Positions 21,921-63,938 are shown, numbered from the stretch's first letter. The stretch: 64,000 nucleotides of DNA from a virus (IMGVR_UViG_3300035670_000075:41388-105387), one strand, 5' to 3'. Translations and numbers: made by a program. Notes: generated by a model not told the origin, from the sequence alone.

Positions 21921-21944
21921 GTCGGCTGTACCGCTAAGTTAGGG
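21921..21944 (-). mobile_element. Truncated attC (R'' and L'' half only)
   Basis: Minus strand CCCTAAC-TTAGC-GGTACAGC-CGAC; no matching second half. Confidence 0.6.
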
Positions 21945-21950
21945 GTTATT

Positions 21951-22133
21951 ATGAATGAGAAAGAGTTGCTTGAGATAATCAACGCATACAAAAACGATAT
22001 TTTATCCAACGATGGAGATAAAGCAGATCGTTTTTTAATGATGCTTGCAAAAGAAGTTGAACGTCAAACACGCCATAAAGCAGTGAAAATTGCTTACGAT
22101 ATGGCAGAGAAAATTAGCGATCTGAACTCCTAA
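21951..22133 (+). CDS. Cassette-borne hypothetical protein
   Basis: Starts just after GTTAGGG; stop TAA lies in the TCCTAAC box. Confidence 0.7.
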   Translation: MNEKELLEIINAYKNDILSNDGDKADRFLMMLAKEVERQTRHKAVKIAYDMAEKISDLNS

Positions 22134-22226
22134 CGCCGAGCTAAGCCTACCGGTGCTGCCGGTCAACTTGAACCAAAACCGAAAAATCTCGGCGGCACCG
22201 GGTCGGCCTTGAGCGATAAGTTATGG
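22128..22226 (-). mobile_element. attC site
   Basis: Minus: CCATAAC-5-GCTCAAGG-CCGA...stem...GCTTAGC-TCGGC-GTTAGGA. Confidence 0.85.
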
Positions 22227-22420
22227 CAGATATTACAATGTGCATCAATCAAGCATGTGATATGCGTGAAGACTGCTATAGAGCAAAAGCGACACCTGCT
22301 GTTTTCCAAAGTTTGTGTTTTTTTGCTCCGATAAACGGTAATTGCGAGAATTATATTGAGTATAAGCAGCACACTAAAAAAGCAAAAAATACTGGTATTT
22401 GTAGCCATAACGCTTTATAG
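22223..22420 (+). CDS. Cassette-borne small Cys-rich phage protein
   Basis: MADITMC....C.....CYR; cassette ends GTTATGGC / GCCATAAC are complementary. Confidence 0.7.
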   Translation: MADITMCINQACDMREDCYRAKATPAVFQSLCFFAPINGNCENYIEYKQHTKKAKNTGICSHNAL

Positions 22421-22430
22421 CCAGAAAAAC
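22404..22430 (-). mobile_element. attI-like array-proximal site
   Basis: Minus: TTTTTCTGGCTATAAAGCG|TTATGGC; resembles the other two array ends. Confidence 0.5.
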
Positions 22431-22658
22431 TTCCGCCATATTAGATAATAGCCATTAAATACGGAGACAATGAATATTTTTTAGCTTGGTATGAAGCGCT
22501 ATGATTTACCTACAACAACAAGCTCACTCCACGCAACCCAATCAGCATCAAACACCATTCCATTGCCATCAACAACACCGACCAACGCCGACGTATTGAT
22601 ATTATCAACATCCTGCACATGCAGGATGTTACCGTTTCGCATGACATCCATGCCAATC

Positions 22659-22898
22659 TTAACCACCACTCGCAAACCCCGCGTAATTTCTAGCCTTCTC
22701 AGCCGCAAGCCTTTCAATCTGCTTGCGCCTACGCTCTGCTTCCAACTCCGCTGTCCCATCTGGCACAACCAAATAAGCTTGCTGCTTTACGTCATCCCAC
22801 ATCATCCTTGCGGGGTCGAATGCCGCTGGACTGATGGGGATTATCTTCTCGTTCTGCTTTGGTTGTCTGCCGATAACATCAGGAAAATCACTCGCCAT
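22659..22898 (-). CDS. Hypothetical protein
   Basis: Overlaps the portal stop; RBS GAGG. Confidence 0.5.
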   Translation of the reverse strand: MASDFPDVIGRQPKQNEKIIPISPAAFDPARMMWDDVKQQAYLVVPDGTAELEAERRRKQIERLAAEKARNYAGFASGG

Positions 22899-24303
22899 TC
22901 AAATCTTCCTCTTCCACGTCGCTTTCGTTGTCATCGTCACTTACCGGATCGATTGAGTCATCCGTCATGTCATCTTCAGGCTGACTATCAACTGACGGAT
23001 CTTGTGGCGGCATTTCCACATCGCTTTCGCCACCGCCAATATCCTCGTAATCATCGCCGTAACGCTCGGCCACTGATTCCGGCTTCAACCTGTACCCCAT
23101 AGCGAACAACTCTTTATCGCGGGCAACGCGCTTGTCCTCGTCTTCAGTAGCAGAAATATCGAAGAAGATTTGCGGCACGCGGCGCAGGTCGCTGGTTCCG
23201 GTATTGAGCAACATCAGCATCGTCAACAATTGATGCCGAGTGGTTGGCTCGTATTGACGGAAATCTGAAACTGCCAAGTCCCACATTTCCGTGTTGCGCA
23301 TATCGCCACCGGAGAATACCCCAGTACGCTCCGCAAAAGCCTTTTCAGAACCAGTCAGCAGGCGGCGAGCCAGTGACCCAAACATATTGTACCAATTGAT
23401 GAAGCTTGCCGTTTGACCTTTTACCGCATCAAGCTCTTTGATGTTCATGCGCTCAGGCATAATGCCGTAAGCCTTTTCGATCATCATTGCCATTGCCGAC
23501 TTGAGTTTGCGCTGGTCGGTTTTCGATGTGCCTTCAGGGAATGTGGCGAACAGTTTTGGTATACCGTAATTGTGTAGGAACGCTTGTCCGTCGCCATGGG
23601 TTTCCATGCGCGATAACCACGCCCAAATCAGCGCCATGAACAAGCCTGACTCATGCGGATAGCCTGGCACTGCTTGGTGCTTATGCACGACCCATCCAAA
23701 CGGCCAAAATGGTTCGTCACCGCCAAGCCGTGTTTTGTAGCGCAACACGTTTTTGTTTTTACGCCACGGCGTCGCGACAGAGATATTGCGCTGCTGAAAT
23801 TCAGGAACCCACACGCCGTCGATTTTCTTCCACCCGCTGCCGCCTTCCTCGTCGGCAATTTCCATCAGCGAAAACCCGGCACCGATACCGGCAGACAAGC
23901 CAAGCAGATAGTCGTCGAAGTTTTTGATTTGCGCCAGGATGTCGCGCAAGATTTTTACGTTCTTTTTGTCTTCGCGCTTCGCCAGTCCACGGTCTACCAC
24001 AAATCCGTTTTCATCGCGGTAGCTGTCCCAGGTGTAAATGTCGAACGACACTGACAGCGGTGCGGTCGCCCGCATGTTAAAGCCCCACATGATGTCGGGG
24101 TCAAAGCGCAGCATCATCCACCACAGGCGGGATAATCTTGTCAGGTCGCCGTCATTGGCTTCGCCGATGATGTTGTAGATGTCGGTTGGGCGTAGATTAC
24201 GGTAAATCTCGCTGTAATCATTCTGCGCCAAACCGAATGAGATGGCTTCGCCGTCGCTTTCGGTTTGCGATTCTTTCAGTGCTTTAATCGCCATTGCTAC
24301 CAA
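22888..24303 (-). CDS. Portal protein, DUF935 / Mu gp29 family
   Basis: A..GDL, G...GFSLMEI, GWVVHKH...GYP..SGL..L.W, F...YGIP; follows terL. Confidence 0.88.
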   Translation of the reverse strand: MVAMAIKALKESQTESDGEAISFGLAQNDYSEIYRNLRPTDIYNIIGEANDGDLTRLSRLWWMMLRFDPDIMWGFNMRATAPLSVSFDIYTWDSYRDENGFVVDRGLAKREDKKNVKILRDILAQIKNFDDYLLGLSAGIGAGFSLMEIADEEGGSGWKKIDGVWVPEFQQRNISVATPWRKNKNVLRYKTRLGGDEPFWPFGWVVHKHQAVPGYPHESGLFMALIWAWLSRMETHGDGQAFLHNYGIPKLFATFPEGTSKTDQRKLKSAMAMMIEKAYGIMPERMNIKELDAVKGQTASFINWYNMFGSLARRLLTGSEKAFAERTGVFSGGDMRNTEMWDLAVSDFRQYEPTTRHQLLTMLMLLNTGTSDLRRVPQIFFDISATEDEDKRVARDKELFAMGYRLKPESVAERYGDDYEDIGGGESDVEMPPQDPSVDSQPEDDMTDDSIDPVSDDDNESDVEEEDLNGE

Positions 24304-25919
24304 TCCTCTTCTTCATATTCATCACCACCGACACCGCCAGTTACAGGTTCAAAGCCGTAATCTTCAAAACCAAGCCCAAGTTCCGACATGTACTTTAGCG
24401 CTTGCGTCATCGAATCAACTTGGTCTTTGAATTGACTCGACGGGAAATTCATCATTTCTTCCTCGAACAACGCCAGCCAAGGCGCATTTTCAGGCAGGAA
24501 AACATTTCCCGCGACGAACTGTGCGGAGATTGATTCTGCGCGCGCCAATTTATCTCCCTGCACATAAAACACGTTACCGCGTTCAACGCGGTTGTCGCTC
24601 GCCTTCTTTGCCACCGGCATCACCGGGACAATATTGAGTGACGGTCGCCGGTCTACACCGAGTTCGTTCAACATCAATCTCCATTCAGCCTCGCGCATTG
24701 AGCGCAGTTGCGAGATAAGTTCCGTCCCGTTTGCCTTGTCCTCAATTAAGATGGCGTCTGGCTTGAACGCATCGGCGCGGGTAATCACCGCCCGCAGCAA
24801 ATCAGAGAACTCGACGCGCTGCCGGTAAACGTCCAGTAGGTAATAGCCGTTGCGCGTTTTTGCCCACTCGGTACACACCGAATATGCGTTACCATCTTTT
24901 TTGCTTTTCGCCGTATCCCACGATGCAACACGCTGGATAATATCACCTATAGAGGATTGATTTCTATATCGCTTGATGTTTACCGCCTTAAATAATCCGC
25001 CACCACGCGGCACTGGACGCTGTTGATGCTGTGCGGCGTAGTTGTATGAACCGAGTTTTAGCTTCTGCCCGTCGATAAACTTGCGGTCGAAGCCGCGCTC
25101 CGGCCACAACAACTCGCCTTCCTGCGTGCGTGGGTCAATAAAGCCGAGCGGGTTGTGGATCATCACCTGCGGTTCGTACTCGGAGGGGATTTTTAGCACT
25201 ACCCAGTTATCCGGCGAGTTGTCCATGAGATATTGCGCAATATCGCGGGTATCGAGGCGCTGCATGATAAGTATTTTGGCGTGTTTTTGCGGGTTGTTGA
25301 TACTTGCTTCCCACGAATTGCGCCACCATTCCACGACATTATCAAAGTCGGCATTGCTGAGTTGACCGATTTTGCGCGAGTCCATGAGGTCGTCGGCAAC
25401 GTTGTAATCACCGCCGTTGCCAAGGATGCCAGAGCCTACCGAAGTGGCGTAGCGGAATCCGCTGTTGTCGTTTTCGTATTTTGACTTGGTATTCTGATCG
25501 CCTGTCAACACGAATTTGTCACCCCAGTAGCGTTGATACAGAGGTGACTGGATGATACGCCGCGAGTCAACGCTATCGCGCAAAGACAGACTGGCGCTGT
25601 GGCTGGCGTAGAGAAACTTGGAGGACGGTACTTTCGTCCACCACCAGGGCGTGAGGCACGCGGATGCCAGCAAAGACTTGGTGTGGCGGCGCGGGATGTT
25701 GATCATGAGGTTGGTAATCTCGAATCGCAGTGCGGCTTCGAGATGCTCACCCACAGCGTAGTGGTGCCAGTTCAACTGCAAGTCCTCGCCACGTACCGCT
25801 TGCCACATCACCCGCATGAACTCGACAAGACTGCGCTCAGCCAGTTCGCGAACGAGGATGTCGCGGTCGGTGCTGAGTAGTTTTTTGGCGAGCGGAGATA
25901 GTCTTGGTTGTTTTTGCAT
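24297..25919 (-). CDS. terL: Terminase large subunit
   Basis: LMINIPRRHTKS, DD, IMQRL, Y.AQHQQRP, SWDTA, IEDKANG, DQVDSMTQAL. Confidence 0.95.
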   Translation of the reverse strand: MQKQPRLSPLAKKLLSTDRDILVRELAERSLVEFMRVMWQAVRGEDLQLNWHHYAVGEHLEAALRFEITNLMINIPRRHTKSLLASACLTPWWWTKVPSSKFLYASHSASLSLRDSVDSRRIIQSPLYQRYWGDKFVLTGDQNTKSKYENDNSGFRYATSVGSGILGNGGDYNVADDLMDSRKIGQLSNADFDNVVEWWRNSWEASINNPQKHAKILIMQRLDTRDIAQYLMDNSPDNWVVLKIPSEYEPQVMIHNPLGFIDPRTQEGELLWPERGFDRKFIDGQKLKLGSYNYAAQHQQRPVPRGGGLFKAVNIKRYRNQSSIGDIIQRVASWDTAKSKKDGNAYSVCTEWAKTRNGYYLLDVYRQRVEFSDLLRAVITRADAFKPDAILIEDKANGTELISQLRSMREAEWRLMLNELGVDRRPSLNIVPVMPVAKKASDNRVERGNVFYVQGDKLARAESISAQFVAGNVFLPENAPWLALFEEEMMNFPSSQFKDQVDSMTQALKYMSELGLGFEDYGFEPVTGGVGGDEYEEEDW

Positions 25920-25991
25920 TGCTGTAGTTTACATTATTCGTGTAAACGTATACTATTAACATACTCTTTGGCGATAAAAGAGCCTCCAATT

Positions 25992-26988: not shown

Positions 26989-26998
26989 CGAGTCAAAC

Positions 26999-28090: not shown

Positions 28091-28091
28091 C

Positions 28092-39477: not shown

Positions 39478-39936
39478 ATTTGGATGACATGACCATAAGA
39501 TGAATCAGTAACAGAAATTCTTGAATATCGCTCACCGTGGAAAACAAAGCGAGCGGTAAAAAAAAAAGGCAAGTGGCTAAGCCGTCATGAGAAGCGCCCG
39601 CCGAGCGCTTGAAATTGCCACATCGGTACGAAGCATCACTGGCTCCAATAGGCAAAGGCGTCTTGAAATGCCGGTGTGTTGCGGTTCGATTCCGTGACTG
39701 TGCTTTTTTTATAGCTATAAGAAGTCAGCAAAATGCATCTCTATTACTGTGGACGTAAAAAATGGCGCGGTTATATGAATCGCGTAACTGAAGCTAGTAT
39801 GCTTGATGCTTTACCATTCGGGAAATTAATTGCGCGGGTAAAAAAGCATCAGGTTTATTTTGTATGTCGTGATGTTTCAAGAAGTCAGCAGGCAATTAAA
39901 TTGAAAAGATTTTGGCGGGCTTCGCGCAGTGAATAA

Positions 39937-40034
39937 AGATAACGCCCGAACTCAGGCGACCATTGCCGCCTATGAGCTTTAATTAACCAATTTAAACCGG
40001 CGGCAATGGGTCGGCCTTGACCGCCAAGTTAGGC
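39937..40034 (-). mobile_element. attC site
   Basis: Minus: GCCTAAC-5-GGTCAAGG-CCGA-CCCATTGCCGCC...GGCGGCAATGG...CCTGAGT-6-GTTATCT. Confidence 0.85.
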
Positions 40035-40053: not shown

Positions 40054-40299
40054 ATGAACACAGACGATATAATGAATGAATCTGAGAAGCTTACAGAGGA
40101 ACTTGTAAAATATCTAGCAAAACGTAAAACAAACCGCGCAGTTGCGATCACGTCATTAGTAGATTGCTGCGTTTTTATCGCTACCGAGTCGAAAGATGAA
40201 AAAGTCATTTTCACAATACTTGATATGATTCATAAAAGAGTAGACTCAATTGCCAATGAGCTTTTTGCAGAGCGTAGCATATGGAAAGTTAAAGCCTAA
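40054..40299 (+). CDS. Cassette-borne hypothetical protein
   Basis: Cassette ends GTTAGGCTTT / AAAGCCTAAC are 10-bp complementary; stop lies in TAAC. Confidence 0.75.
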   Translation: MNTDDIMNESEKLTEELVKYLAKRKTNRAVAITSLVDCCVFIATESKDEKVIFTILDMIHKRVDSIANELFAERSIWKVKA

Positions 40300-40349
40300 C
40301 TTGTAGATAGGCAGAATGTTGAATAACTGTTATTTAACATTCTGCCTAT
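40294..40349 (-). mobile_element. attI-like site with 21-bp-arm palindrome
   Basis: Minus: ...CATTCTGCCTATCTACAAG|TTAGGC; palindrome 40307-40349; near-identical copy at 45816-45868. Confidence 0.65.
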
Positions 40350-43173: not shown

Positions 43174-43397
43174 TAACTAAAGGCAACGGGACATTCAAAG
43201 CTGGCGATAGAATAGTCTTTTACAAAAATGGGGACATAGGTTGCGCACAGGCTGGTGGATGGGTTGATAATAAGGACGCAGAAGAAGCTACAAAAGGTAT
43301 GGAATACAGACCTGATGTTGAGTTTGCGAAAAAGAAGATTAAACGCCTATCGGAAGAGATTGCAGAGTTGCGCAGAGAATATGGTGTTACTGAATAA
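43143..43397 (+). CDS. Phage hypothetical protein
   Basis: Overlaps the end of the DUF2779 gene. Confidence 0.55.
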   Translation: MESCMEKRFVVTKGNGTFKAGDRIVFYKNGDIGCAQAGGWVDNKDAEEATKGMEYRPDVEFAKKKIKRLSEEIAELRREYGVTE

Positions 43398-43611
43398 TGT
43401 TATTTTCCTTTGGAGTGAAAAACATGCTTACGACTGTTAGGGCTAGAGTTTGCAGAGTTGGTGAATGGGCAGTGTTCCGCACAAAACAGCATGGATTGGT
43501 CATGCAAATGGGCGACGGTTATATGAAAGCGCCTCTGCAAAAAAAGAATATGTTTAAGTTAAATATCAGCGGTAATACGCCATGCCTGGTAAGGTCGCGA
43601 TGCGATATTAA

Positions 43612-43708
43612 AACTAACGCCAAAGCTCAGGCGACAACCGCCGTCTGTGAACCATAAACAACCAAAAAGCCTAACGGCAGCGGGTCGCGCTCAAGTGTGA
43701 AGTTAGGC
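43612..43708 (-). mobile_element. attC site (more degenerate, array-distal)
   Basis: Plus: AACTAAC-GCCAAA-GCTCAGG-CGAC...GTCG...GTGAA-GTTAGGC. Confidence 0.7.
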
Positions 43709-43722
43709 TGTGGAGATAAGCC

Positions 43723-44010
43723 ATGACTGAGATTGTAAAAGGAATGAAAATTACGCCTTGGGGTACTAAAGATAACCCTCTTATGCAGGGAATGTTTGTT
43801 GGTTGCGTACAATGGGCGATTGGTGATAAAGATATAGTTGAATCGTTCAAGAAAGATACAGGTAATGACCTGAACTCGTTAAGATTTTCAGGTATTGATG
43901 GAATGATTGATGAAGCTACAGGAAGGGCTGGAGAGATGTTTGCAGCCTTTGCGGATTATGTGGCTGAAAATATCTGGGGTGATGAAAACTCGGATATTGA
44001 TGCAGCCTAA
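43723..44010 (+). CDS. Cassette-borne hypothetical protein
   Basis: GTTAGGCTG / CAGCCTAAC ends; RBS GGAG; stop in TAAC. Confidence 0.75.
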   Translation: MTEIVKGMKITPWGTKDNPLMQGMFVGCVQWAIGDKDIVESFKKDTGNDLNSLRFSGIDGMIDEATGRAGEMFAAFADYVAENIWGDENSDIDAA

Positions 44011-44103
44011 CGCCAGAATTAACCCGACATGCGCCGCCAATTAACTAAAACCAAGTCATAAAAGCCCGACGGCGCATGGTCGGACTTGATGGCAAAGTTA
44101 TAC
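44005..44103 (-). mobile_element. attC site
   Basis: Plus: GCCTAAC...CCGACATGCGCCG...CGGCGCATGGTCGG...GCAAA-GTTATAC. Confidence 0.85.
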
Positions 44104-44112
44104 GGAGACTAT

Positions 44113-44418
44113 ATGAGCAAGCAACAATGGGGACATGGATACCACCGTGGTTTTAATAAAGGATACGCAAAGGCGAAGCGCGAAGAGGAAACAAAGCGCG
44201 CTTTCAAAGAAAATAAACATGCTCATTGGGTTGAGATTACTCATTACGGAAGCGAAGGCGTTGAGCCAAAAGACCGCATGTTATGCGGTGATGTTGGTGG
44301 TAGCTGTATAAGCGGAAGCGGTGAAAGCATATGTGCTGGCTATCGCGGTGAAAATGAAACAGGTACACATGTGATATGCGCTGAAAAACCAAGAGCGTAT
44401 AAGCATGATTCCGTATAA
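44113..44418 (+). CDS. Cassette-borne hypothetical protein
   Basis: GTTATACGGA / TCCGTATAAC ends; stop in TAAC. Confidence 0.75.
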   Translation: MSKQQWGHGYHRGFNKGYAKAKREEETKRAFKENKHAHWVEITHYGSEGVEPKDRMLCGDVGGSCISGSGESICAGYRGENETGTHVICAEKPRAYKHDSV

Positions 44419-44511
44419 CGCCAGAACTCAGGCGACCATTGCCGCCTGCAAACTTAAACTTTAGCCAGTTCACTCCGGCGGCAATGGGTCGCCTGGAGTG
44501 ACAAGTTATAT
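44413..44511 (-). mobile_element. attC site
   Basis: Arms nearly identical to the 39937-40034 site. Confidence 0.88.
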
Positions 44512-44794: not shown

Positions 44795-44898
44795 ATATAA
44801 CGCCAAAGCTCACGCGACCAATACCGCCCGCGATGAGCTTTAATCCGGCACTAAATTTTGTGGGCGGTATTGGGTCGCCGTGGAGCGTAAAGTTAGGT
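44795..44898 (-). mobile_element. attC site
   Basis: Plus: ATATAAC...CGACCAATACCGCCC...GGGCGGTATTGGGTCG...GTAAA-GTTAGGT. Confidence 0.88.
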
Positions 44899-45059: not shown

Positions 45060-45066
45060 ATTTTAC

Positions 45067-45164
45067 ACCTAACGCCTGAGCTAAGCCGCGCTGCGCCGCG
45101 ATGAACTTTATATTAACCTGCTCAAGCCCGACGGCGCAGCGTCGGCTTGAGCGCAAAGTTAGAG
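45067..45164 (-). mobile_element. attC site (textbook layout)
   Basis: Minus: CTCTAAC-TTTGC-GCTCAAGC-CGACGCTGCGCCG...CGGCGCAGCGCG-GCTTAGC-TCAGGC-GTTAGGT. Confidence 0.92.
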
Positions 45165-45241
45165 GTTGACATGGATAGAATCAAGGTAACAAAAGATTGC
45201 ATTAAAGTATATGAGCAGCAAAAAGGTTCAAAAGAATCTTC

Positions 45242-45811
45242 TTACTTATCAAGAAGAAGACTTCTAATTTCTTTGAAATCGTCATCATCAAGAAAGAAAA
45301 ACTGACATGATTTTGATTTCTTTTTATTTGACATAATCGTTAATCCTTTATATATGCTTAACGATTGTGTCTTTTTGGCATCTGCACTTGATAATATGCT
45401 AACTTTATTAAATCCGTTTTTTTCAAAAAAATGTTCTTTACCAATTGAAGATATGAAACATATAGGAGAGAATCTTTCTTTCACTGTGCTAAGCACAAGA
45501 CTACCAATACCTTCCATTCTGTATTTTTCTTCAACATATATGCGATGTAGATAGAATTTATCTCCAGGAAAATGAATAACCATAGCATAAGATATTGGGT
45601 TTCCTTCATAAAGGTAAGCTATGATTTTCAAATTACCAACACGAAATAACTCTTTAAATATATTTGATATATAATTTAAAGCATTATCATAATTTATGTT
45701 TTTATCAATTGATAGCCCAATAATCATTGGAGTTATAAGAGCATCCTGAAGCATTATCTCCGATTCTATTTTTATTATCTGGTTTATATCTGATTGACTA
45801 AGCTCACTCAT
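45242..45811 (-). CDS. GNAT-family acetyltransferase (AT-rich cassette)
   Basis: YLHRIYVEEKYRMEGIGSLVL, FFEKNGF; begins GTTAGAGGTAAATATG. Confidence 0.85.
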   Translation of the reverse strand: MSELSQSDINQIIKIESEIMLQDALITPMIIGLSIDKNINYDNALNYISNIFKELFRVGNLKIIAYLYEGNPISYAMVIHFPGDKFYLHRIYVEEKYRMEGIGSLVLSTVKERFSPICFISSIGKEHFFEKNGFNKVSILSSADAKKTQSLSIYKGLTIMSNKKKSKSCQFFFLDDDDFKEIRSLLLDK

Positions 45812-45815
45812 ATTT

Positions 45816-45868
45816 ACCTCTAACTTGTAACTAGGCAGAATGTTAAATAACTGTTATTCAACATTCTG
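45816..45868 (-). mobile_element. attI-like site with 16-bp-arm palindrome
   Basis: Minus: ...CATTCTGCCTAGTTACAAG|TTAGAGGT; palindrome 45836-45868. Confidence 0.65.
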
Positions 45869-45880: not shown

Positions 45881-46207
45881 ATGTCACAATCATTCCTATC
45901 AGCCAACGCCAGGGCGCAGCGCAGGCACAAAGCCAAACGCGCTGCGCTAGGCTTCTCTCAGCTTAATTTCTGGATTCACGAAAAAGACCGTGACATTCTG
46001 GCTTCGGCACTGAAAAAATACAACGCTGACAAGCTTGAAACGCTGGAGCGGCGCATGAGCTTAATCATTCGTGTCGCCAACGACGAAACTGAAATAACAC
46101 TGCACGAAGCATCAGAAATACAACAAAAGATGTTTCCAGAAAATAAACCGCTACCAATAAAAAAAACATGGTGGCAGAAAACCAAAGCATGGCTTGGCGT
46201 TAACTAA
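45881..46207 (+). CDS. Small RHH-like protein with amphipathic C-terminus
   Basis: RAQRRHKAKRAALGFSQLNFWIH; KKTWWQKTKAWLG. Confidence 0.6.
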   Translation: MSQSFLSANARAQRRHKAKRAALGFSQLNFWIHEKDRDILASALKKYNADKLETLERRMSLIIRVANDETEITLHEASEIQQKMFPENKPLPIKKTWWQKTKAWLGVN

Positions 46208-46286: not shown

Positions 46287-46310
46287 GTATTATTTTTATA
46301 GTTGACACAG

Positions 46311-47387
46311 ATGGAAACTGAAGATTTAGAAGAAAATCATGAATCGGATACGCGCGAAAGACTTCTCAAGAAATACGCCGCAAAATCCATACGGAAAAAG
46401 ACGCGGCAAGACTACGAATCAAGACTTAGGCTTTATCAAGCGTCAGGTAGAAAACTTCCAGCAACTGACGTTGAAATCGTAGAATACATCGAATCGGCAA
46501 AAGTCATGTCGCGTAAGAAAAACGGCGAATACATTACCAAAGACAGCTTGCTTGCTGTGTCATCAGTCCAATCAATAGTTGCTGCTTTGTCGTGGTGGCA
46601 TCAAGAAAATAACCACCAAGACCACACAAATAGCGCGCTGGTTAAAAAAGCCATTGCAGCAATCAAGCGCGAACGCGCAAAACCGCAAGCGCAAGCGCGA
46701 GCAATAAAAACTGAAGAAATTGCAGCAATCACTGAAACGCTACTCGAACTACAAACAACCCAAAATGCCGCAGACAATCTCCGCGCAATCCGCGATCTGG
46801 CTTTTATCCTCGCGCTGTTTTACACCGGGTGCAGAGAAAGCGAAATCCGTCACCTCAGAGTTGATGATCTGGAGTTTACAGATGACGGTCTAATCGTAAA
46901 AATCAGAAAGTCAAAAACAGACGACGGAACTGGAAGAAACACGCCAATCCCATACCGCGATGCTAACGGACAAAAAATACTCGCGGCATACGCGATCTCT
47001 GATTGGATTGAAAAGGCTGGAATAAAGTCTGGCTTCGTATTCAGAACAGTAGACCAATACGCTGTCGTCGGTCGTGGGAAAAAGCCGCTAGACTATGGGT
47101 TTTCTTCACGGACACTACTCAAATACGCAGAGATGTCAGGCGTATCAATAGACGGAATCAGCACACACTCATTCAGAGCCGGGTGCGCAACAGCACTAAA
47201 TTTAAGCGGCGCAGGTATTGCCGAGATAGCGCAGCACTTAGGTCATCGCTCAACGGCGTCAACGATGAAATACTTACGCGCCGACGCATCAACCAGACTT
47301 AAAGACGCACCAACACGGAAAATTGCGCAGCCAAAGAAAACTTTTACGCAGATAGTTTTCACGTTTATTGCACGTTTATTTTCGTGA
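46311..47387 (+). CDS. Cre/TnpS-like tyrosine recombinase
   Basis: RD.A......TGCRESE, KSKTD, HSFRAG.AT, GH.S...MKY; no IntI-specific insertion. Confidence 0.9.
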   Translation: METEDLEENHESDTRERLLKKYAAKSIRKKTRQDYESRLRLYQASGRKLPATDVEIVEYIESAKVMSRKKNGEYITKDSLLAVSSVQSIVAALSWWHQENNHQDHTNSALVKKAIAAIKRERAKPQAQARAIKTEEIAAITETLLELQTTQNAADNLRAIRDLAFILALFYTGCRESEIRHLRVDDLEFTDDGLIVKIRKSKTDDGTGRNTPIPYRDANGQKILAAYAISDWIEKAGIKSGFVFRTVDQYAVVGRGKKPLDYGFSSRTLLKYAEMSGVSIDGISTHSFRAGCATALNLSGAGIAEIAQHLGHRSTASTMKYLRADASTRLKDAPTRKIAQPKKTFTQIVFTFIARLFS

Positions 47388-47531: not shown

Positions 47532-48668
47532 TCACGATTTTTGCACGTCGAGTGATTCCAGCATGGCTTTGAATTTGTCTCCGGCGTTGGGTGCTGCGGT
47601 TGGCATCCAGCGCGCGTAGAATTTGCGGATCATTGCCCAGTCAGAGTGTCCCATCACGCTTGCGATCCATGCCGGGTTTTCGCCAGCGGTGAGCATCATG
47701 CAGGCGAATGTGTGGCGGGTTTGATAGGGGTAGCGGTAGCGTACTCCGGCGCGCTTCAGAGTTGGACGCCAGACGAATTCCCGTATAGTTTTGTCGTTGC
47801 TGTACGGTTTGTTGGTTTTGGGGTCGAAGAAGATTTGTGCGGCGTGGTGGTAGGTGTGTGATTTTTGTGCAATCACGGCTTCTAACGCGGGGTCGAACAA
47901 GGGGACTTCGCGGCGGCCTGATTTGGTTTTTGGTTCTTTGGTGATTTTGCGTGATTGACTGAGGCGGATGAATACGCGGCGGTTGGGTTCGTCAAAGTCT
48001 TCCCACCGTAGCGCTAGGAGTTCGCCTGTGCGTAGTCCGGTGAAGAAGGCGAAGCGGATGAGGTTGCGGTGTTGTTCGTACTCGCAGGCGGCGAGGATTT
48101 GTTGAATCTCTTGCGGGGTGAATGGATCGGGTTCTTGCGTGGTGGTTTTGAGGTTTTTGATTTTGTCGGCTGGATTGCGTTCAATGGTGCCGTCAATGTA
48201 GGCGTCTTCGAGCATTCCGCGCAGCGGGATCATGATGTTGTTGATGCGCTTGTTGCTGATGACCAGTCCGGCGATCCAGTCTTTGATGTGGGCTGTTTTG
48301 AGGTCTTTGAGCTTGATATGACCGAACTGAGTTTTCAGGTGGTGATCAATCGCGCTTTGGTAATCGCGGATCGTGGTGTGTGATTTGCCGTGGCTGTTGT
48401 TTCGCAGCCAGGCGTCCAGCGCCTCGGCAATGGTTATTGCGGTAGGCGCGTAGTCGTCGAATAGGGTTGCGCGTTTTGAGTTGGGGAAATGTTTGCGGTA
48501 GCTGAATGTGCCTACTGCTATTTCATGCTCGATGGCAGCGGCAAGACGCTCGCCGTGTTTTCTATTGGTCAGCGTGTCTTTCAGGCGCAGGCTCTCGCGG
48601 CATTGCACGCCGTTGAGGACGAACCCGATCCACAGCCTGTCGCCGTCTCTTGTGTAGATTTTCGCCAT
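47532..48668 (-). CDS. Phage integrase with N-terminal arm-binding domain
   Basis: F...G..CRESL, F.Y..HFPNS, TGLR.GE, KT..G.R, YQTRHTFA, MGH, FY..W. Confidence 0.95.
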   Translation of the reverse strand: MAKIYTRDGDRLWIGFVLNGVQCRESLRLKDTLTNRKHGERLAAAIEHEIAVGTFSYRKHFPNSKRATLFDDYAPTAITIAEALDAWLRNNSHGKSHTTIRDYQSAIDHHLKTQFGHIKLKDLKTAHIKDWIAGLVISNKRINNIMIPLRGMLEDAYIDGTIERNPADKIKNLKTTTQEPDPFTPQEIQQILAACEYEQHRNLIRFAFFTGLRTGELLALRWEDFDEPNRRVFIRLSQSRKITKEPKTKSGRREVPLFDPALEAVIAQKSHTYHHAAQIFFDPKTNKPYSNDKTIREFVWRPTLKRAGVRYRYPYQTRHTFACMMLTAGENPAWIASVMGHSDWAMIRKFYARWMPTAAPNAGDKFKAMLESLDVQKS

Positions 48669-48852
48669 GTGCGCTGGTATTTCCCCACATCCAGTTACGA
48701 ATCGCATCTAAATCATACACGATTCGTTTGCCGTCAGGGGCTTTTTTCCAATGCACGCCTTCCAGCCAATGCCCAAGTCGGCGATGAGACTCTTGGGATT
48801 TTTGGCTGTAGCCTGTTTCGCGCGCCAATACGTCACCGAGTACCGGCGTCAT
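48562..48852 (-). CDS. Excisionase-like protein
   Basis: ETGYS...G.WLEGVHWKKAPDG.RI.YDL.AI..W; directly upstream of int. Confidence 0.8.
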   Translation of the reverse strand: MTPVLGDVLARETGYSQKSQESHRRLGHWLEGVHWKKAPDGKRIVYDLDAIRNWMWGNTSAHGENLHKRRRQAVDRVRPQRRAMPREPAPERHADQ

Positions 48853-56435: not shown

Positions 56436-56441
56436 AACAAC

Positions 56442-56512
56442 TCTCGTTCCCACGCCACTATTCTCGTTCCCACGCGCCGAGTGGGAACGAGAAGTGATCG
56501 GCGCGTGGGAAC
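56442..56512. repeat. REP-like TCGTTCCCAC/GTGGGAACGA repeat cluster
   Basis: Nested inverted copies between convergent genes. Confidence 0.75.
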
Positions 56513-56517
56513 TAGAT

Positions 56518-56979
56518 TTATCGTGGCATCGCGCCCTGCACCGCCTTAATACCATCCAGCGCCGAAGCAATATCCGCTTGCAAATGCTGGATCGCCTCCA
56601 GCAACGCGCCTTTGGCTGACTTCGGCAGTTTTTCGCCAAGCGCCGTTGCCGAGCCGCTCAGATTACCAAGGTCGTCGCTCAACTCGCCCAGCGTCAACTT
56701 AAATTCTGTATTGGCGTTGCAATACGCCAAATAGAATTTAACATGCGTTGACACCTCGCCCTGGATATACGGATTCATCAATATGAATCCCGCAATGTTG
56801 ATGTAGTAGCCGTCATTGCCCGGCGTAATGGCGACGTGCTGTAGGTCTTGCGGCGACAGTTTTGCCAGCAGCTTGCCGACCGAGGCATTGACGTTGCCGA
56901 GGTCGCGCTTGAATTCGCACGCAATGGTGCGGGTGTGGGTGACGGCAACGCCGTCTTTTAGTTCAACTAACTCTCGCAT
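56518..56979 (-). CDS. Rha-family regulator-like protein
   Basis: LVELKDGVAVT....IA.EF.R...NV...V.KL. Confidence 0.7.
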   Translation of the reverse strand: MRELVELKDGVAVTHTRTIACEFKRDLGNVNASVGKLLAKLSPQDLQHVAITPGNDGYYINIAGFILMNPYIQGEVSTHVKFYLAYCNANTEFKLTLGELSDDLGNLSGSATALGEKLPKSAKGALLEAIQHLQADIASALDGIKAVQGAMPR

Positions 56980-57726: not shown

Positions 57727-57842
57727 CATCTCGTTCCCACGCGCCGCGTGGGAATGCCGAAGCACCGCGCTGCGGTGCGTACCGTAAGCCGCTCCGCAGC
57801 GCGGAGATTCCGCGTTCCCACGCAGCGCGTGGGAACGAGATG
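57727..57842. repeat. REP/MITE-like element with 17-bp terminal IR and internal hairpins
   Basis: CATCTCGTTCCCACGCG...CGCGTGGGAACGAGATG. Confidence 0.8.
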
Positions 57843-59920: not shown

Positions 59921-59980
59921 TCAATAGCATTCTACAGAGTGTTATTGAGTAAACAATCCCACCACACAGAGAGAAATCCC

Positions 59981-60184: not shown

Positions 60185-60188
60185 TGCC

Positions 60189-60398
60189 ATGAATCGCTTA
60201 TATGTTCGCCTTTGGATGTTAAGCCGTCGCTATAAAATCGAATGGGTAAAAAGCATTGGGTGGGCTGTTACGCATAAGCCTAAATTAGGTGGCGTATACA
60301 CCATTCATGCCTTGCCTGAACAATTTGCTGACGCTTGGCAAAGCATTGATGATGATGAAGATTTGCAGTTAGCATTATCATGTTTTTGCCCACGATAA
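60189..60398 (+). CDS. Early hypothetical protein
   Basis: RBS AAGGAG. Confidence 0.55.
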   Translation: MNRLYVRLWMLSRRYKIEWVKSIGWAVTHKPKLGGVYTIHALPEQFADAWQSIDDDEDLQLALSCFCPR

Positions 60399-60459
60399 AC
60401 CGTATGCTATAGCGAGTTTCCAAAAGCTCGCTATGTCATGCGCTTTGCGCAGTAGTCCG

Positions 60460-60493
60460 TACCCGCTTGGACAATCCAAGCGGGTATTTTTTT
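60460..60493 (+). terminator. Rho-independent terminator
   Basis: TACCCGCTTGGA-CAA-TCCAAGCGGGTA followed by T7. Confidence 0.7.
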
Positions 60494-60516
60494 GTCCGTA
60501 AAAAAAGGAGTTCACC

Positions 60517-61941
60517 ATGAACAAACGTCCCGTACCCAACACCGCAGATCAAGCCATGACCGCAATTGCATCGTGGGAAACCACGATCAAAAGCTTGCAT
60601 GAAGGCACCGCTAAAGCGTTAGCTATGGAAAGCGGCAAGCCGCGTAAAAACGCGCTTATCGCCCAACAGAAAAAGCTCGGCGAAATAGCTGAACTGAAGC
60701 GCAAAGCACGCGCTTTGTGCAGCAAGGCTATCAAAGCCGATCCGACGTTGATCGATCTGGTGGCGAACGACAAACAGCCCGGCAGTATTTGGGCGGATGT
60801 TTTGAAGCTGTCGAAAGCAAAATGCGGCAAAGTGAACTATGCCACGGCAATCAAAAATGCCTTGTCAGAACAGCGCAAGCCGCAGGAAGAAAAAGCCAGT
60901 AATGAAGCGGCGGATTATGCCGTGATGAAAATGGAACTGCGCCAAGTAACGGTTGCAGAATTCGCGGGCGAACTTCACAGCAGTATCGTGATCCCGCCAT
61001 ATCAGCGCCGCTATATCGTCAAAGAAGATTGGCAACGCAACTTGGTTGAAAGCGCCGTCAATCAACATCCGATTGGCGTTTTGACCGTGTTTAAGGACAA
61101 GCACGACAAAAAGCTTGGTGATGGTCAACAGCGCGCGACCACTTTGGTTAATCGCTATAACCTGCCGGGCAATATGTCGGGTGAAGACTTCGCCAAACTG
61201 TCGGCGTATCGCCTGATGATTGTCGAATACAGCATGGCGGACGGTTCCGCCGTGCCGCTGAACTTACAGCAAAAAATATTCGACGACATGCAGCGCGGCA
61301 ATCCGTTATCGCTCGGCGAACGCTTACCGGGCATGAAAGGACTGGAATGGAACAGCCGCGCCGAGATTGTTGTGGGCGGCGACGCTTACAAAGACCACTG
61401 CTTGACGCTGAAATCTGACCGTAAGCAGGACATCCAGCTTTACGGTTTAGTCCAGGCGGTTGGCTACGGTCAATGGCTTTCCTTTGAAAATGAGGAAAGC
61501 TTTATCCGTGATAACGTCGCCACCAGTGAAGACATGGACGCCGTGCAAGAGCAATTCGCCGCGACGGAAATGGCGTGGTTGATCGCCAACGAACTCGGCA
61601 GTATTGCCTTCCAAACCAAAGGCAAAAACGACAAGCCGACGTTTAACCGTTGGTTAGCCTCTGCGGTGATTGGGTCTATCGTAAAGGCAATTACCGAAAA
61701 TACCGACGGCAAAGTATTTTGTGATGAAATATTCGTAACCAAAGCTAAAGAAGGGCTGCGGACGTTGCTTGGCAATGATCGCTTCCGTATGACCATTGAA
61801 AAATACGACGGCGAAGAAATCCAGCCCGGCAACCCTGCTGGCTTCAAGCGCCGTATGAGCATGGTTAGCGAAGTTATCAATGCCGCATTCAGCGCCCAAA
61901 TGGATGCCGTTATCAAGCAAGAAGAAGCGGTTGCCGCCTAA
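60517..61941 (+). CDS. DUF262 (GmrS / ParB-Srx-like) domain protein
   Basis: IPPYQRRY, LVES....PIG, DGQQR.TTL, IF...Q.G.PLS..E. Confidence 0.85.
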   Translation: MNKRPVPNTADQAMTAIASWETTIKSLHEGTAKALAMESGKPRKNALIAQQKKLGEIAELKRKARALCSKAIKADPTLIDLVANDKQPGSIWADVLKLSKAKCGKVNYATAIKNALSEQRKPQEEKASNEAADYAVMKMELRQVTVAEFAGELHSSIVIPPYQRRYIVKEDWQRNLVESAVNQHPIGVLTVFKDKHDKKLGDGQQRATTLVNRYNLPGNMSGEDFAKLSAYRLMIVEYSMADGSAVPLNLQQKIFDDMQRGNPLSLGERLPGMKGLEWNSRAEIVVGGDAYKDHCLTLKSDRKQDIQLYGLVQAVGYGQWLSFENEESFIRDNVATSEDMDAVQEQFAATEMAWLIANELGSIAFQTKGKNDKPTFNRWLASAVIGSIVKAITENTDGKVFCDEIFVTKAKEGLRTLLGNDRFRMTIEKYDGEEIQPGNPAGFKRRMSMVSEVINAAFSAQMDAVIKQEEAVAA

Positions 61942-62059
61942 CCCAACCAAGATTGCCCGCCACGGCGGGCAATCATCCGCCAGCGCATTTACGAGTGCGT
62001 TGGCGGATGATTTTATCAACGCCGCCTTATGGCGGTTTTTTTATGCCTGGGAGAGTATC

Positions 62060-62392
62060 ATGCCCAAGAAAAACGTAATACAGGAAGTCGAATATCTGCC
62101 TGACGCACTGAAAATCATTGGCGGCGGTAAATCCATCGTGATCGGCGAGGCAGGCGGTATCAACTGGCCGTTTACCACCGAGATCGATGCCGCCGACATA
62201 GACGCCGCTTGGCGTACTGAGCTTAGCCGCGTCACCGGCATTCCCGCCGACCGGATTGAATGCGTAACCCCCGCAAGCGGTTGGGGCGCGCGCTATTTTG
62301 ATCTGCGCCACAATGGGCGGGAACGCCCGTGGCGACTGTTTGAAACAAAAGCCGCCGCCCGCAATTGGTTGCGGGATCACAAAGAGAATTAA
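62060..62392 (+). CDS. Early hypothetical protein
   Basis: RBS GGAG; flanked by terminator-like hairpins. Confidence 0.55.
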   Translation: MPKKNVIQEVEYLPDALKIIGGGKSIVIGEAGGINWPFTTEIDAADIDAAWRTELSRVTGIPADRIECVTPASGWGARYFDLRHNGRERPWRLFETKAAARNWLRDHKEN

Positions 62393-62609
62393 GCCACCCG
62401 CCACGCCGCAAGGTATGGCGGGTTTTTTATTGTCTGGAGGAAAAACATGCAGCCTTACGGCGTTAGTGCGGAGTGGTGTCGCCGCCGGAATAATCGTGAA
62501 TTGTGGAAAGGCACCAACGAATTAAACCGATCATCGATACCTAAGTTCCAAAGGCAACCCTCTCGCGCAAGGCAAGAGGCAAAGAGCTTTATCAGAAAAG
62601 AGTTAAATT

Positions 62610-62798
62610 ATGATCAAGACCACGAAACAGCAACGCCAAGCGTTGCTTAAAATCTATCGCCGCCATAACAGCGGCGAATCATACCTAGCCTTCCGCCGCA
62701 AAGTTCAGCCGACAATCGGCTGCAATGATGCGGTCGCCGTGCCGATAGGCGGTGTTATGTGGGTGTGCGTAGAGAAAGACGGTTACGCGCACTCATGA
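62610..62798 (+). CDS. Phage hypothetical protein
   Basis: T..QR.AL..IY.R, SYLAFRR, MW...E.DGY.HS. Confidence 0.6.
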   Translation: MIKTTKQQRQALLKIYRRHNSGESYLAFRRKVQPTIGCNDAVAVPIGGVMWVCVEKDGYAHS

Positions 62799-63136
62799 GA
62801 ATGTGGATGCTCCCGCCCGCTTGCCTGTGCCGCAAGCACCTGCTTGGCGAACACGGCGAAATCCACAAGCACCGCCACAACTTCGAGAAGCGTCACCGCA
62901 TGGACGGGCGCTTCTCGCCGGTTGTGCAAATCGAACCCGCCGCAATGCTCCGCCGCCATGACGAACTGGCGGCAGAGATGCTGCGGCGCGGCTACAATCA
63001 CCAATCGACGTTCACCATGCCGGATATTTCATATCTTCCGGCATGGCAACAATTCGCACTGGTTGACACCGCCGAATCACGCCGCGACTTGGCGCAGCGG
63101 TGTCCTGAATGCGCTCGTCTGTTGACAAGCGGTTAA
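62795..63136 (+). CDS. Pyrimidine-dimer DNA glycosylase (DenV-like)
   Basis: MRMW...P..LCRKHLLGEH.E.H, RHDEL..EM..RGYNH.S. Confidence 0.8.
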   Translation: MRMWMLPPACLCRKHLLGEHGEIHKHRHNFEKRHRMDGRFSPVVQIEPAAMLRRHDELAAEMLRRGYNHQSTFTMPDISYLPAWQQFALVDTAESRRDLAQRCPECARLLTSG

Positions 63137-63202
63137 CGCACTTGCATACACGGCTTTTGCTAGTGTATGCTGGTGTTTACGGTTTTTTTGTTGGAGGATG
63201 TT

Positions 63203-63580
63203 ATGCTGGTTATCAATGGGTGCAACTTCAAAGAAGCTCTGAGGAATAGCCAAGATCAATCGGAAGTAGATGCGATCCTGGAATATTTCAAAGGGTGCAA
63301 AATTGGCGGAAAATCGCCGCGTGCGCTGTATATTTACGACAACGAAGGCGAAACCGCCGACCGCTATACAGCGGTATACAAGGGCGCACCTGGGACACGC
63401 GAGCCTAACGTATGGGATGCACGGGGAATGAATGCCTCGCCGTATCACCCTCAAGGCATTGGCATGTTTTGCTCAGCCATGCTTGGCAATCATCTTGGGC
63501 GCAAGATTGGGTTTCTGGATTTACCAGAAGACTGCCGCCTGTTGGTCGCATCGGACATTAAGGACTACAGCCATGAGTGA
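63203..63580 (+). CDS. Phage hypothetical protein
   Basis: RBS GGAGG; YDN.GET.DRYT, HLGRKI.F.DLP. Confidence 0.6.
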   Translation: MLVINGCNFKEALRNSQDQSEVDAILEYFKGCKIGGKSPRALYIYDNEGETADRYTAVYKGAPGTREPNVWDARGMNASPYHPQGIGMFCSAMLGNHLGRKIGFLDLPEDCRLLVASDIKDYSHE

Positions 63581-63863
63581 TCATGGAATTGAAGCCTATT
63601 TTAAGAAAAACCGCATTGCCCACGAAGGCGGGCTGATGGGTATTGACTCAGCGGTGTTTGTCGCCGCTGAGCATATTGATCGTGGCATCAATCCTGATGA
63701 CGTGATTAAGATTTTGCGCGAAGAACACGCGCAGGCGCTCGACGGTAGTGATACCGTCGAGTTTGAAATTGTAAGCATGGCGCAAGATATTGTCTGCGCC
63801 TACCGGGATGGGGGATTGTGGAATGGGCCGACAAGCTTTGAGTGCTTGTTGGTGGCGAACTAA
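63573..63863 (+). CDS. Phage hypothetical protein
   Basis: Coupled to the previous gene. Confidence 0.55.
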   Translation: MSDHGIEAYFKKNRIAHEGGLMGIDSAVFVAAEHIDRGINPDDVIKILREEHAQALDGSDTVEFEIVSMAQDIVCAYRDGGLWNGPTSFECLLVAN

Positions 63864-63912
63864 TCACCGCAGGCGCGGTGATTCCGCATTAAATTTTTGC
63901 GCCGCGTAAAGC

Positions 63913-63938
63913 GGTCGGACTGAAGCGCCAAGTTAGGT
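63913..63938 (-). mobile_element. Truncated attC half, distal end of a probable fourth array
   Basis: Minus: ACCTAAC-TTGGC-GCTTCAGT-CCGAC; followed on plus by GGAGG and ATG 63958. Confidence 0.6.

Follow-up and report, generated by a model that had tools for sequence, protein, structure and literature searches.

The genome of a temperate siphophage (105 kb) was found to carry integron-type cassettes at four loci, and nearly all of the cassette genes run opposite to those of bacterial cassettes, so that the attC hairpin stands in front of the gene and not behind it. In the window, that is, the whole 64-kb stretch of DNA that was analysed, this mirror-image layout was observed for seven of the eight complete cassette genes and for a ninth that is cut by the end of the record. 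We consider these to be genuine integron-type cassettes in integrase-less arrays (CALINs), with the bottom strand on the plus strand, which a host IntI would probably have inserted and which would probably be transcribed by read-through.

attC sites and array structure

Seven complete attC hairpins and two truncated attCs were identified in the window (Table 1), and all of them, complete or truncated, share one orientation. A pattern search of the whole 105,387-bp record for full attCs returned seven forward sites, no reverse sites and no further sites, and the family model R2 assigned 87 to 103 bits to each of the seven on the plus strand. The core boxes of an attC are the inverted RYYYAAC ... 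GTTRRRY motifs at its two ends. The boxes TAAC ... GTTA were present in all seven sites, the R-box pairs were invariant in the alignment, and 11 of the 22 pairs in the consensus fold showed compensatory changes. The sites form imperfect hairpins with L boxes and unequal central spacers (on the bottom strand, 6 nt on the 5' side and 5 nt on the 3' side). The window contains 25 occurrences of TAACGCC, as against 8.9 ± 3.2 in shuffles.

A CALIN is a cluster of at least two attC sites that has no integron integrase close by. Locus 3 has this structure, with five attCs within 1.6 kb for five genes; loci 1 and 2 have one full attC each. No IntI was found in the 105-kb record, where the best scores against TIGR02249 were 28–31 bits (cut-off, 265). 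The left end of the array is an attC at all four loci, and the right end is a lone R box at the three loci where it is visible. The truncated attC at 21921 has no 5' arm and was undetected by R2; its GTCGGCTGTACCGCTAAGTTA agrees with the 3' halves of the full sites. Locus 4 comprises, within the window, only a truncated attC and the first 14 codons of an ORF. Two related contigs, L020 and L036, whose match to the window extends over just 114 bases (63887–64000, 99%), carry at this locus a full attC, a 73-aa plus-strand ORF and then a second attC, with primase, ATPase and methyltransferase genes as neighbours.

Table 1. Features of the cassette arrays and their right-hand flank in the window.
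Feature	Coordinates	Strand	Remarks
Truncated attC	21921..21945	+	3' (L''-R'') half of bottom strand only, ending GTTAGGGG
Cassette ORF, 60 aa	21951..22133	+	Stop in TAAC; 0.41 per codon; 9/2000 shuffles as long
attC	22128..22226	+, bottom strand	R1 16.0 bits, R2 97 bits
Cassette ORF, 65 aa, Cys-rich	22223..22420	+	ATG within GTTATGG box
Lone R box, right end of array 1	22405..22412	+	GCCATAAC, 8/8 complementary to GTTATGGC at 22220
attC	39937..40034	+, bottom strand	R2 93.8 bits; missed by R1
Cassette ORF, 81 aa	40054..40299	+	Stop in TAAC; 0.257 per codon; 5/2000 shuffles as long
Array-end module, copy 1	40294..40349	+	GCCTAAC + TTGTAG + palindrome, 21-nt arms
attC, left end of array 3	43612..43712	+, bottom strand	R2 87 bits; missed by R1
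Cassette ORF, 95 aa	43723..44010	+	Stop in TAAC; weak match to phrog_5692
attC	44005..44104	+, bottom strand	R1 11.7 bits on +; R2
Cassette ORF, 101 aa, orphan	44113..44418	+	Stop in TAAC
attC	44413..44511	+, bottom strand	R1 23.2 bits on +; R2
Cassette ORF, 89 aa	44525..44794	+	ORF-length and codon-usage tests
attC	44795..44898	+, bottom strand	R1 14.1 bits on +; R2
Cassette ORF, 51 aa	44904..45059	+	Weakest case, 69/2000 shuffles
attC, nearest to blaGES-5 and qacL attCs	45067..45164	+, bottom strand	R1 51.4 bits, E 7e-12
GNAT acetyltransferase, sole canonical-orientation cassette gene	45242..45811	-	Cassette GC 0.325
Array-end module, copy 2	45817..45868	+	CCTCTAAC + TTGTAA + palindrome
108-aa ORF between end module and recombinase	45881..46207	+	No family match
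Cre/Xer-like tyrosine recombinase	46302..47387	+	Position and orientation of intI in an integron
Truncated attC	63887..63938	+	Loop and 3' half only; complete in L020 and L036
Cassette ORF start, cut by record end	63958..64000	+	First 14 codons; 73 aa in L020/L036, then another attC

Polarity of the attC sites

As judged from four lines of sequence evidence, the plus strand is the recombinogenic bottom strand of the attCs. The earlier note had read the attC asymmetry on the minus strand, most clearly at 45067–45164, and the extrahelical bases and model R1 agree with that reading in placing the bottom strand on the plus strand. By BLAST, the plus strand at 45060–45170 matched the attCs of blaGES-5 and qacL from class 1 integrons; in the class 1 records with this match, the cassette genes are encoded on the other strand, with intI1 to the right, on the plus strand (five of five annotated records). 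To compare the two arms of each hairpin, the 3' arm was reverse-complemented and aligned with the 5' arm. The 5' side reads TAAC + 6 nt and the 3' end reads [G] + 3 nt + 5 nt + GTTA; the extra bases sit on the 3' arm of the plus strand, the same layout as in the bottom strands of six control attCs. This pattern was clear at 22128, 44413, 44795 and 45067, and the alignments were noisier at 39937, 43612 and 44005. Model R1, built only from the bottom strands of four class 1 attCs (qacL, a yjjG-annotated cassette, aac(6')-IIc and blaBEL-1), detected five of the seven sites, all on the plus strand (45067, 44413, 22128, 44795 and 44005), and failed to reach 39937 and 43612; on the minus strand, none of the seven scored at E ≤ 10. 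The fourth line is the Giesbergeria integron described below, in which attCs of this family accompany a true IntI and likewise have their bottom strands on the plus strand. The ends of the units show 8–10 nt of complementarity across each ORF. Since such extended complementarity fits either polarity, it adds nothing to the polarity call.

Cassette ORFs and their relatives

The claim that the ORFs are inverted relative to attC polarity at all four loci was borne out, as seven of the eight complete genes are on the plus, and hence the bottom, strand and one (GNAT) is on the minus strand. Only the GNAT cassette has the canonical arrangement, with the ORF on the strand opposite the bottom strand and the attC downstream. 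A tight fit of ORFs to boxes had also been described and was seen again: four ORFs (at 22131, 40297, 44008 and 44416) terminate with the TAA of a TAAC box, and an RBS or ATG comes directly after the GTTA box. The plus-strand ORFs fill their units, and shuffles matched the observed ORF length in only 1–69 of 2000 trials. The codon-usage score per codon was 0.07–0.41 for the plus-strand cassette ORFs, compared with 0.13–0.39 for the long genes of the phage; the minus-strand ORFs had a negative score.

The cargo was said to resemble ordinary small phage genes, and for two proteins this proved to be so, their homologues in other phages being encoded by ordinary, attC-free, overlapping operon genes. 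For the 95-aa protein there were 362 representative homologues (E ≤ 1e-3), with alignments spanning almost the entire length, and those in L047–L049 are without an attC. The 65-aa protein shares 44% identity with a hypothetical protein of Maribacter phage Panino, whose gene is part of a densely packed, attC-free operon. A search of 5.8 billion proteins with the 101-aa ORF returned only itself.

Expression context

At all four loci, the cassettes are co-oriented with plus-strand phage genes directly upstream, and we infer that they may be expressed from these upstream phage operons. The late genes that flank locus 1 (protease and portal) are on the minus strand, so that the phage operon there is only a small plus-strand island (21181–22420). 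A terminator-like hairpin lies at 39678–39698, upstream of locus 2. The earlier note had proposed a reverse-polarity class expressed from phage operon promoters; the polarity held, and co-orientation was seen at four of four loci, whereas promoter scans of the sequence gave no promoter-like matches above the shuffled level.

Array-end module and the neighbouring recombinase

Two arrays end in a 49-nt palindromic module with a single R box, of which the genome has two copies. Read by eye, the module consists of 13-nt arms around a 7-nt AACTGTT centre and is lox-like. Contigs from other samples diverge immediately outside copy 2, before 45820 and after 45869. The module and the recombinase occupy the positions where attI and intI would be. 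The recombinase was considered as an IntI and rejected: it scored 28 bits against TIGR02249 (cut-off, 265), and the IntI model covers only its catalytic C-terminal part and not the IntI-specific insertion region. Its closest solved relatives are Cre, at a weak E of 1e-6. A possible parallel is the Cre/loxP system of P1, since a recombinase with Cre as its closest solved relatives lies some 430 nt away from a palindromic 13-7-13 site; unlike in P1, however, the site is present as two direct copies separated by 5.5 kb, with a cassette array directly adjoining each, and the similarity is weak.

Given this arrangement, the phage might mobilise the cassettes itself, with the Cre/Xer-like recombinase acting on the end module and the hairpins in place of IntI. 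The record is without IntI, the recombinase matches intI of the Giesbergeria integron described below in its position and in its direction with respect to the bottom strands, and the end module, present twice with its arm variants swapped between the two copies, occurs as a discrete unit in other contigs, all of which would fit. Nevertheless, we regard self-mobilisation as unlikely, because the sites are canonical attCs from a family that serves a genuine IntI, the recombinase has only the C-terminal catalytic motif in common with IntI, and a Cre-like dimer resolvase, as its closest solved relatives would suggest, is ordinary in large temperate phages. Moreover, module copy 1 has no adjacent recombinase, and loci 1 and 4 have no module.

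Phage and bacterial contigs with the same attC family

Among contigs that carry this attC family, reversed genes are more frequent in phage than in bacterial contexts. Bacterial-type contigs were mostly canonical, and two contigs related to this phage were reversed. The ratio of reversed to canonical genes was 7:1 in the window versus 5:21 in curated bacterial-type contigs (Fisher p 0.001) and 10:22 by automatic count (p 0.006 versus the window). In the control contigs, which are short and rich in GC, orientation was called from the longest ORFs, and the calls are noisy (7 ambiguous, 5 with no ORF). The genome matches of the family (Giesbergeria and Methylomicrobium) are single MAG contigs each. 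The integron of the Giesbergeria MAG resembles the phage arrays in that its 12 attCs belong to the same family (R2 113.7 bits for a site that was itself part of model R2), with bottom strands on the plus strand and the recombinase gene to the right on the plus strand. It differs in having a true IntI above the family cut-off (TIGR02249, 427.7 bits) and only a minority of its ORFs on the plus strand: the longest and clearest (99–156 aa) are on the minus strand, and two or three shorter ones (70–90 aa) are on the plus strand.

These data bear on whether the cassettes are passive relics, that is, pieces of host arrays acquired by illegitimate or homologous recombination, with an accidental orientation, no ongoing traffic and no phage pool. 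Two attCs are truncated in their loops (21921 and 63887), which requires non-site-specific events, bacterial arrays contain a minority of reversed ORFs, and seven of eight against even chance gives p = 0.07 with only eight genes. We nonetheless find such an origin improbable, in view of four separate loci with one reversed design on one strand, the matched ends that every unit has of its own, the phage codon usage of the plus-strand ORFs, the two cargo families that are phage genes elsewhere, the retention of the design in relatives that diverge upstream of locus 4, and the contrast with bacterial contigs. That the cassettes are conventional, with the plus strand as top strand, each plus-strand ORF travelling with its downstream attC and the asymmetry misread, is scarcely credible: both strands of any attC read TAAC...GTTA, the complementarity across each ORF fits equally well and an ORF followed by an attC is the usual picture, but every strand-specific test places the bottom strand on the plus strand, locus 3 would open with the attC of a non-cassette gene and close with an attC-less gene, and an attC would be missing at all three visible right ends.

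Discussion

The reading that we favour is that of genuine integron-type cassettes with the bottom strand on the plus strand. In the standard crossover, the bottom strand is exchanged at AA|C and the top strand at G|TT. By this rule, each mobile unit consists of an attC and, after it, a gene pointing away from the attC. Such units would be put into double-stranded phage DNA at G|TT targets by a host IntI working in trans; two of these targets belong to the 49-nt end module, a candidate for attI-like behaviour. Transcription would come by read-through from the plus-strand phage genes just upstream, at the array end opposite the position of Pc. In a bacterial integron the reversed genes would be antisense to Pc and silent, just as canonical cassettes from the host would be silent in the phage. 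The outcome would be a phage cassette pool with recombination chemistry in common and a separate expression logic. The evidence supports only in part the view that the reversal is due to a cassette pool specific to phages. It is conceivable, and we put it forward tentatively, that phages keep their own mirror-image pool, moved by IntI or by a Cre/Xer-type enzyme with a lox-like module, expressed from phage operons only, silent in bacteria, and with small phage genes as one source.

CALINs in phage genomes were described by Qi et al. (2023), who showed phage attCs to be substrates of IntI1, and phage TJE1 has a palindrome with inverted GTT motifs at its array boundary (PMC9892861). Those CALINs likewise have attC arrays and small ORFs without an IntI, but their cassettes are described as bacterial-oriented, and the sense of the ORFs relative to attC polarity was not examined there; the present phage is distinguished by seven of eight genes in antisense, by having four loci in a single genome and by an end module that occurs more than once. 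We found no published description of this cassette reversal in the literature. The class 1 blaGES-5 and qacL attCs are nearly identical to the phage sites in their R and L boxes, in spacer lengths and in both extrahelical bases (common consensus, TAAC GCCTGA GYT AAGCCG ... [T]CGGCTT[G]ARY N5 GTTAG). In class 1 integrons, however, the gene is opposite the bottom strand, upstream of its attC and driven by Pc beside attI1/intI1, whereas in the phage it is on the bottom strand, downstream of its attC. Bottom-strand selectivity is said to serve in facing the captured gene to the Pc promoter (PMC13108822). IntI also inserts cassettes at genomic GWT sites (10.1101/2022.09.11.507474), which accounts for cassettes outside the integron platform at double-stranded G|TT (GWT), and the right end of locus 1 is a G|TT target (AAAGCG|TTATGGC on the minus strand). 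Such insertion was demonstrated for the chromosome of E. coli rather than for phage DNA, and since that work reports no orientation bias, the reversal is unexplained by it.

The window is a good test case, as it combines canonical-looking attCs, four loci, a matched bacterial integron and related contigs with a candidate attI-like module beside a phage recombinase. Systematically reversed phage cassettes would mean that these recombination sites also work under a second expression logic, probably read-through from phage operons. If so, phages would have a cheap route for exchanging small accessory genes, possibly including anti-defence genes, and such genes could sit silent in bacterial arrays. 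Because two cargo families exist as ordinary attC-free phage genes, there would also be a handle on the origin of cassettes, and polarity would act as an expression barrier between the phage and bacterial gene pools.

Strand polarity of the attC sites

Seven imperfect hairpins were found on the plus strand of the window, each opening with TAACGCC and closing with AAGTTA and measuring 91-98 nt from TAAC to GTTA (the listed attC parts include 3 flanking nt per side). All seven full sites share one orientation, and a pattern search of the whole record returned no others (7 forward, 0 reverse). The covariance model of this attC family (R2) scored them at 87-103 bits, their DNA folding energies were -15 to -27 kcal/mol, and 11 of the 22 pairs in the consensus structure showed compensatory changes. 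Only the 3' halves of such attCs are present at 21921-21945 and 63887-63938. A GTCG...AAGTTA match at record position 23317, which falls within the tape-measure gene, was rejected as chance.

The motif TAAC...GTTA can be read on either strand of any attC; therefore, polarity must be taken from the asymmetry of the site. The earlier note had claimed that the recombinogenic bottom strand is the plus strand, and five tests that agree with one another bear this out: homology, arm alignment, a model of class 1 attCs, a bacterial integron and the array ends. First, the plus strand at 45060-45170 matches the blaGES-5 and qacL attCs of class 1 integrons. Five annotated class 1 records carrying these attCs were inspected; in every one, the strand opposite the match encodes the cassette genes, and intI1 is on the plus strand to the right. 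The antisense strand of the blaGES-5 attC reads GCCTAAC GCCTGA GTT AAGCCG ... [T]CGGCTT[G]AAC GAATT GTTAGAC, and the window plus strand in the same alignment reads ACCTAAC GCCTGA GCT AAGCCG ... [T]CGGCTT[G]AGC GCAAA GTTAGAG. Second, the arms of the seven sites were aligned, as were those of six control attCs. In all of them, the extrahelical bases, which the earlier note had proposed to locate, fall on the 3' arm of the displayed strand (plus in the window), with spacers of 6 nt after TAAC and 5 nt before GTTA; four of the window sites show this layout most clearly. Third, model R1, trained only on the bottom strands of four short class 1 attCs (qacL, a yjjG-annotated cassette, aac(6')-IIc and blaBEL-1), matched five of the seven sites, every one on the plus strand (top score 51.4 bits, E 7e-12), and matched none of the seven on the minus strand at E<=10. 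Fourth, a genome scan with the family pattern found an integron contig in a Giesbergeria MAG (L012), in which 12 attCs have their bottom strand on the plus strand and the integron integrase lies to the right on the same strand (TIGR02249, 427.7 bits against a cut-off of 265). The minus strand holds the longest cassette ORFs of this contig (99-156 aa), and two or three shorter plus-strand ORFs are also present. Finally, each array has an attC at its left and a lone R box at each visible right end, and the five genes of locus 3 are matched by five attCs. This pattern agrees with a top strand on the minus strand and an attI-like end at the right; the opposite model does not account for it.

Contig breaks at 45070 and 45820 were considered as proof of crossover at the left-hand box and rejected. 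They cannot discriminate polarity because the contig breaking at 45070 (from another sample, X3) carries another member of the attC family, similar to attC 2 of the related contig L020, and the X2/X1 contig breaking at 45820 carries the array end module in another context; the breaks demonstrate junction diversity. Extended complementarity of the unit ends was set aside, being compatible with both polarities.

Cassette genes are reversed relative to attC polarity

The plus-strand, tightly fitted genes described earlier were confirmed. Except in the GNAT unit, a single plus-strand ORF occupies each unit from the GTTA box to the next TAAC box, with an RBS or ATG immediately past GTTA (one ATG is part of GTTATGG) and, in four cases, a stop codon formed by the TAA of TAAC. 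Shuffling the units matched the ORF length in only 1-69 of 2000 trials. With a codon model trained on long genes of the phage, the plus-strand ORFs scored 0.07-0.41 per codon, compared with 0.13-0.39 for the training genes, and the minus-strand alternatives scored negative. At the standard crossover position, a unit comprises an attC and the gene on its right. The TAA stop is then the last three bases of the unit, so that it would accompany the gene at any insertion site. The sole exception to the plus orientation is a GNAT acetyltransferase gene on the minus strand, a canonical cassette adjoining the end module. The GC content of this cassette (45073-45823) is 0.325, against 0.488 for the window, and of all clearly coding ORFs its gene conforms least to phage codon usage, which suggests a recent foreign origin.

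Reversed cassettes in bacterial contigs

A metagenome scan for the attC family of the window returned 27 contigs, in which a crude longest-ORF rule called 22 cassette bodies canonical, 10 reversed and 7 ambiguous. Curation left out one miscall (an IntI gene) and four bodies on L032, a metagenome contig, and on L020 and L036, two contigs related to the phage at locus 4. The bacterial-type contigs, whose genes include hydrogenase, ABC transporter and AraC, then had 21 canonical and 5 reversed bodies. The window (7 reversed, 1 canonical) differs from them at p = 0.001 after curation and at p = 0.006 with the automatic count, the ORF calls being rough. In the Giesbergeria integron (L012:116-3859), eleven attCs are about 65-72 nt long and one is 109 nt. 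The latter belongs to the phage-type family, and the unit just left of it has an 82-aa ORF on the bottom strand, a reversed cassette within a real integron. This integron has two or three plus-strand ORFs in all, and by these rough calls reversed cassettes are a minority in bacteria and are not absent. Clusters of attCs in phages have been published, with cassettes described as oriented like bacterial ones (PMC9892861). A full-text literature search found no account of a reversed gene sense.

Homologues of the cargo proteins

The earlier note had raised the possibility that the cassettes are built from phage genes. Maribacter phage Panino encodes a hypothetical protein with 44% identity to the 65-aa Cys-rich protein of locus 1; the Panino gene starts 11 nt past the preceding gene and overlaps the next. 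The 95-aa protein of locus 3 has 362 representative homologues with near end-to-end alignment, and on three viral contigs the genes of its relatives overlap their neighbours; its Atlas search score was below 0.9, a lead only. Neither covariance model found an attC in the Panino locus or in the loci on these three contigs. The 101-aa protein of locus 3 is an orphan, and neither it nor the 95-aa protein had a tblastn match in GenBank phages. Judged by the homologues, at least two of the cargo genes occur elsewhere as ordinary small phage genes; transfer could have run in either direction.

Relatives of locus 4

L020 and L036, which carry primase/helicase, ATPase and methyltransferase genes, match the window at 99% over 114 bases (63887-64000). 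Both have a full attC, a 73-aa plus-strand ORF and a second attC at this locus, and the first 14 codons of this ORF are those of the cut ORF at 63958. By this comparison, locus 4 is a real array, and the half site that the window has there is an attC whose 5' half has been replaced, with the break in the loop. No continuation of the cut ORF was found at the first bases of the record. In L020 (428-1386), the unit after the second attC opens with an ORF of 47 aa that is similar to the C-terminal motif of C5 cytosine methyltransferases and stops in the TAA of a TAAC box. The next ORF starts with a DLFSGIGG motif and matches phage DNA methyltransferase families; the region could represent a methyltransferase cassette that was split or rearranged.

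Phage genome and proposed expression of the cassettes

The window makes up the rightmost 64 kb of an IMG/VR virus record of 105,387 bp, which is about 95% complete. PHROG, Pfam and NCBIfam scans indicated a temperate tailed phage.

Phage genes in the window
Feature	Position	Strand	Basis
Head protease	19615-21120	-	profile scans
Gene(s) upstream of locus 1	21181-21849	+	
Portal	22888-24303	-	profile scans
Large terminase	24297-25919	-	profile scans
Clamp, methyltransferase, ribonucleotide reductase	between 26.8 and 33.7 kb	+	profile scans
Gene(s) upstream of locus 2	39733-39936	+	
Gene(s) upstream of locus 3	41668-43657	+	
Second tyrosine recombinase	46302-47387	+	profile scans
Lambda-type integrase with arm-binding domain	47532-48707	-	profile scans
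Primase and helicase genes	between 49 and 55 kb	-	profile scans
Gene(s) upstream of locus 4	60517-63863	+	

Rfam gathering and ARAGORN searches of the window gave no match, and neither did blastn of locus 3 against GenBank phages. No relatives were found in IMG/VR with the recombinase, the portal, three cargo proteins or an attC pattern as queries. A family of GC-rich nested palindromic repeats (CTCGTTCCCACGCGCCGCGTGGGAA...) occupies several intergenic sites including both record ends (56437-56519, 57727-57842, and 50-130 and 510-600 of the record start).

Since plus-strand phage genes precede the plus-strand cassette genes at every locus, with a long plus-strand block (26-39.5 kb) before the one at locus 2, read-through from upstream would be the simplest source of cassette transcripts. 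Promoter and terminator scans gave no excess of promoter-like sequences over shuffled sequence. A terminator-like hairpin with GGTTCGATTCC, a tRNA T-arm-like motif, followed by a T run, lies at 39678-39698, just upstream of the ORF before locus 2; ARAGORN found no tRNA there. One contig from another sample, X3, lacks 160 nt inside this ORF (39718-39879); 12 nt at the joint are compatible with either side, and the contig looks like a deletion variant within the population.

End module and proposed mobilisation of the cassettes

Two arrays terminate in one 49-nt module consisting of CTAAC, TTGTAR and a palindrome (40317-40349 and 45836-45868) readable as AACTGTT between two 13-nt arms, a lox-like arrangement. 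The copies are direct repeats 5.5 kb apart, with a single arm difference (G/A) swapped, and enclose a small terminase-like gene, a ParB-like gene, a 501-aa ORF and array 3. The module recurs, with different DNA on both sides, in contigs from two samples of one subsurface study, the source sample being one of them.

No IntI was found in the whole record. The cassettes would most likely be moved by a host IntI acting in trans. Phage attCs are substrates of IntI1 (PMC9892861), and genomic GWT sites are targets of cassette insertion by IntI (10.1101/2022.09.11.507474). As a minority alternative, the catalyst could be the second tyrosine recombinase of the phage, a Cre-like enzyme whose gene lies about 430 nt right of module copy 2. 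Recombinases 93% identical to it are encoded on contigs of 3.5-4.8 kb. Relative to the bottom strands, it is placed and oriented as intI would be; however, it has only the C-terminal catalytic motif in common with the Giesbergeria IntI, and its best solved relatives are Cre.
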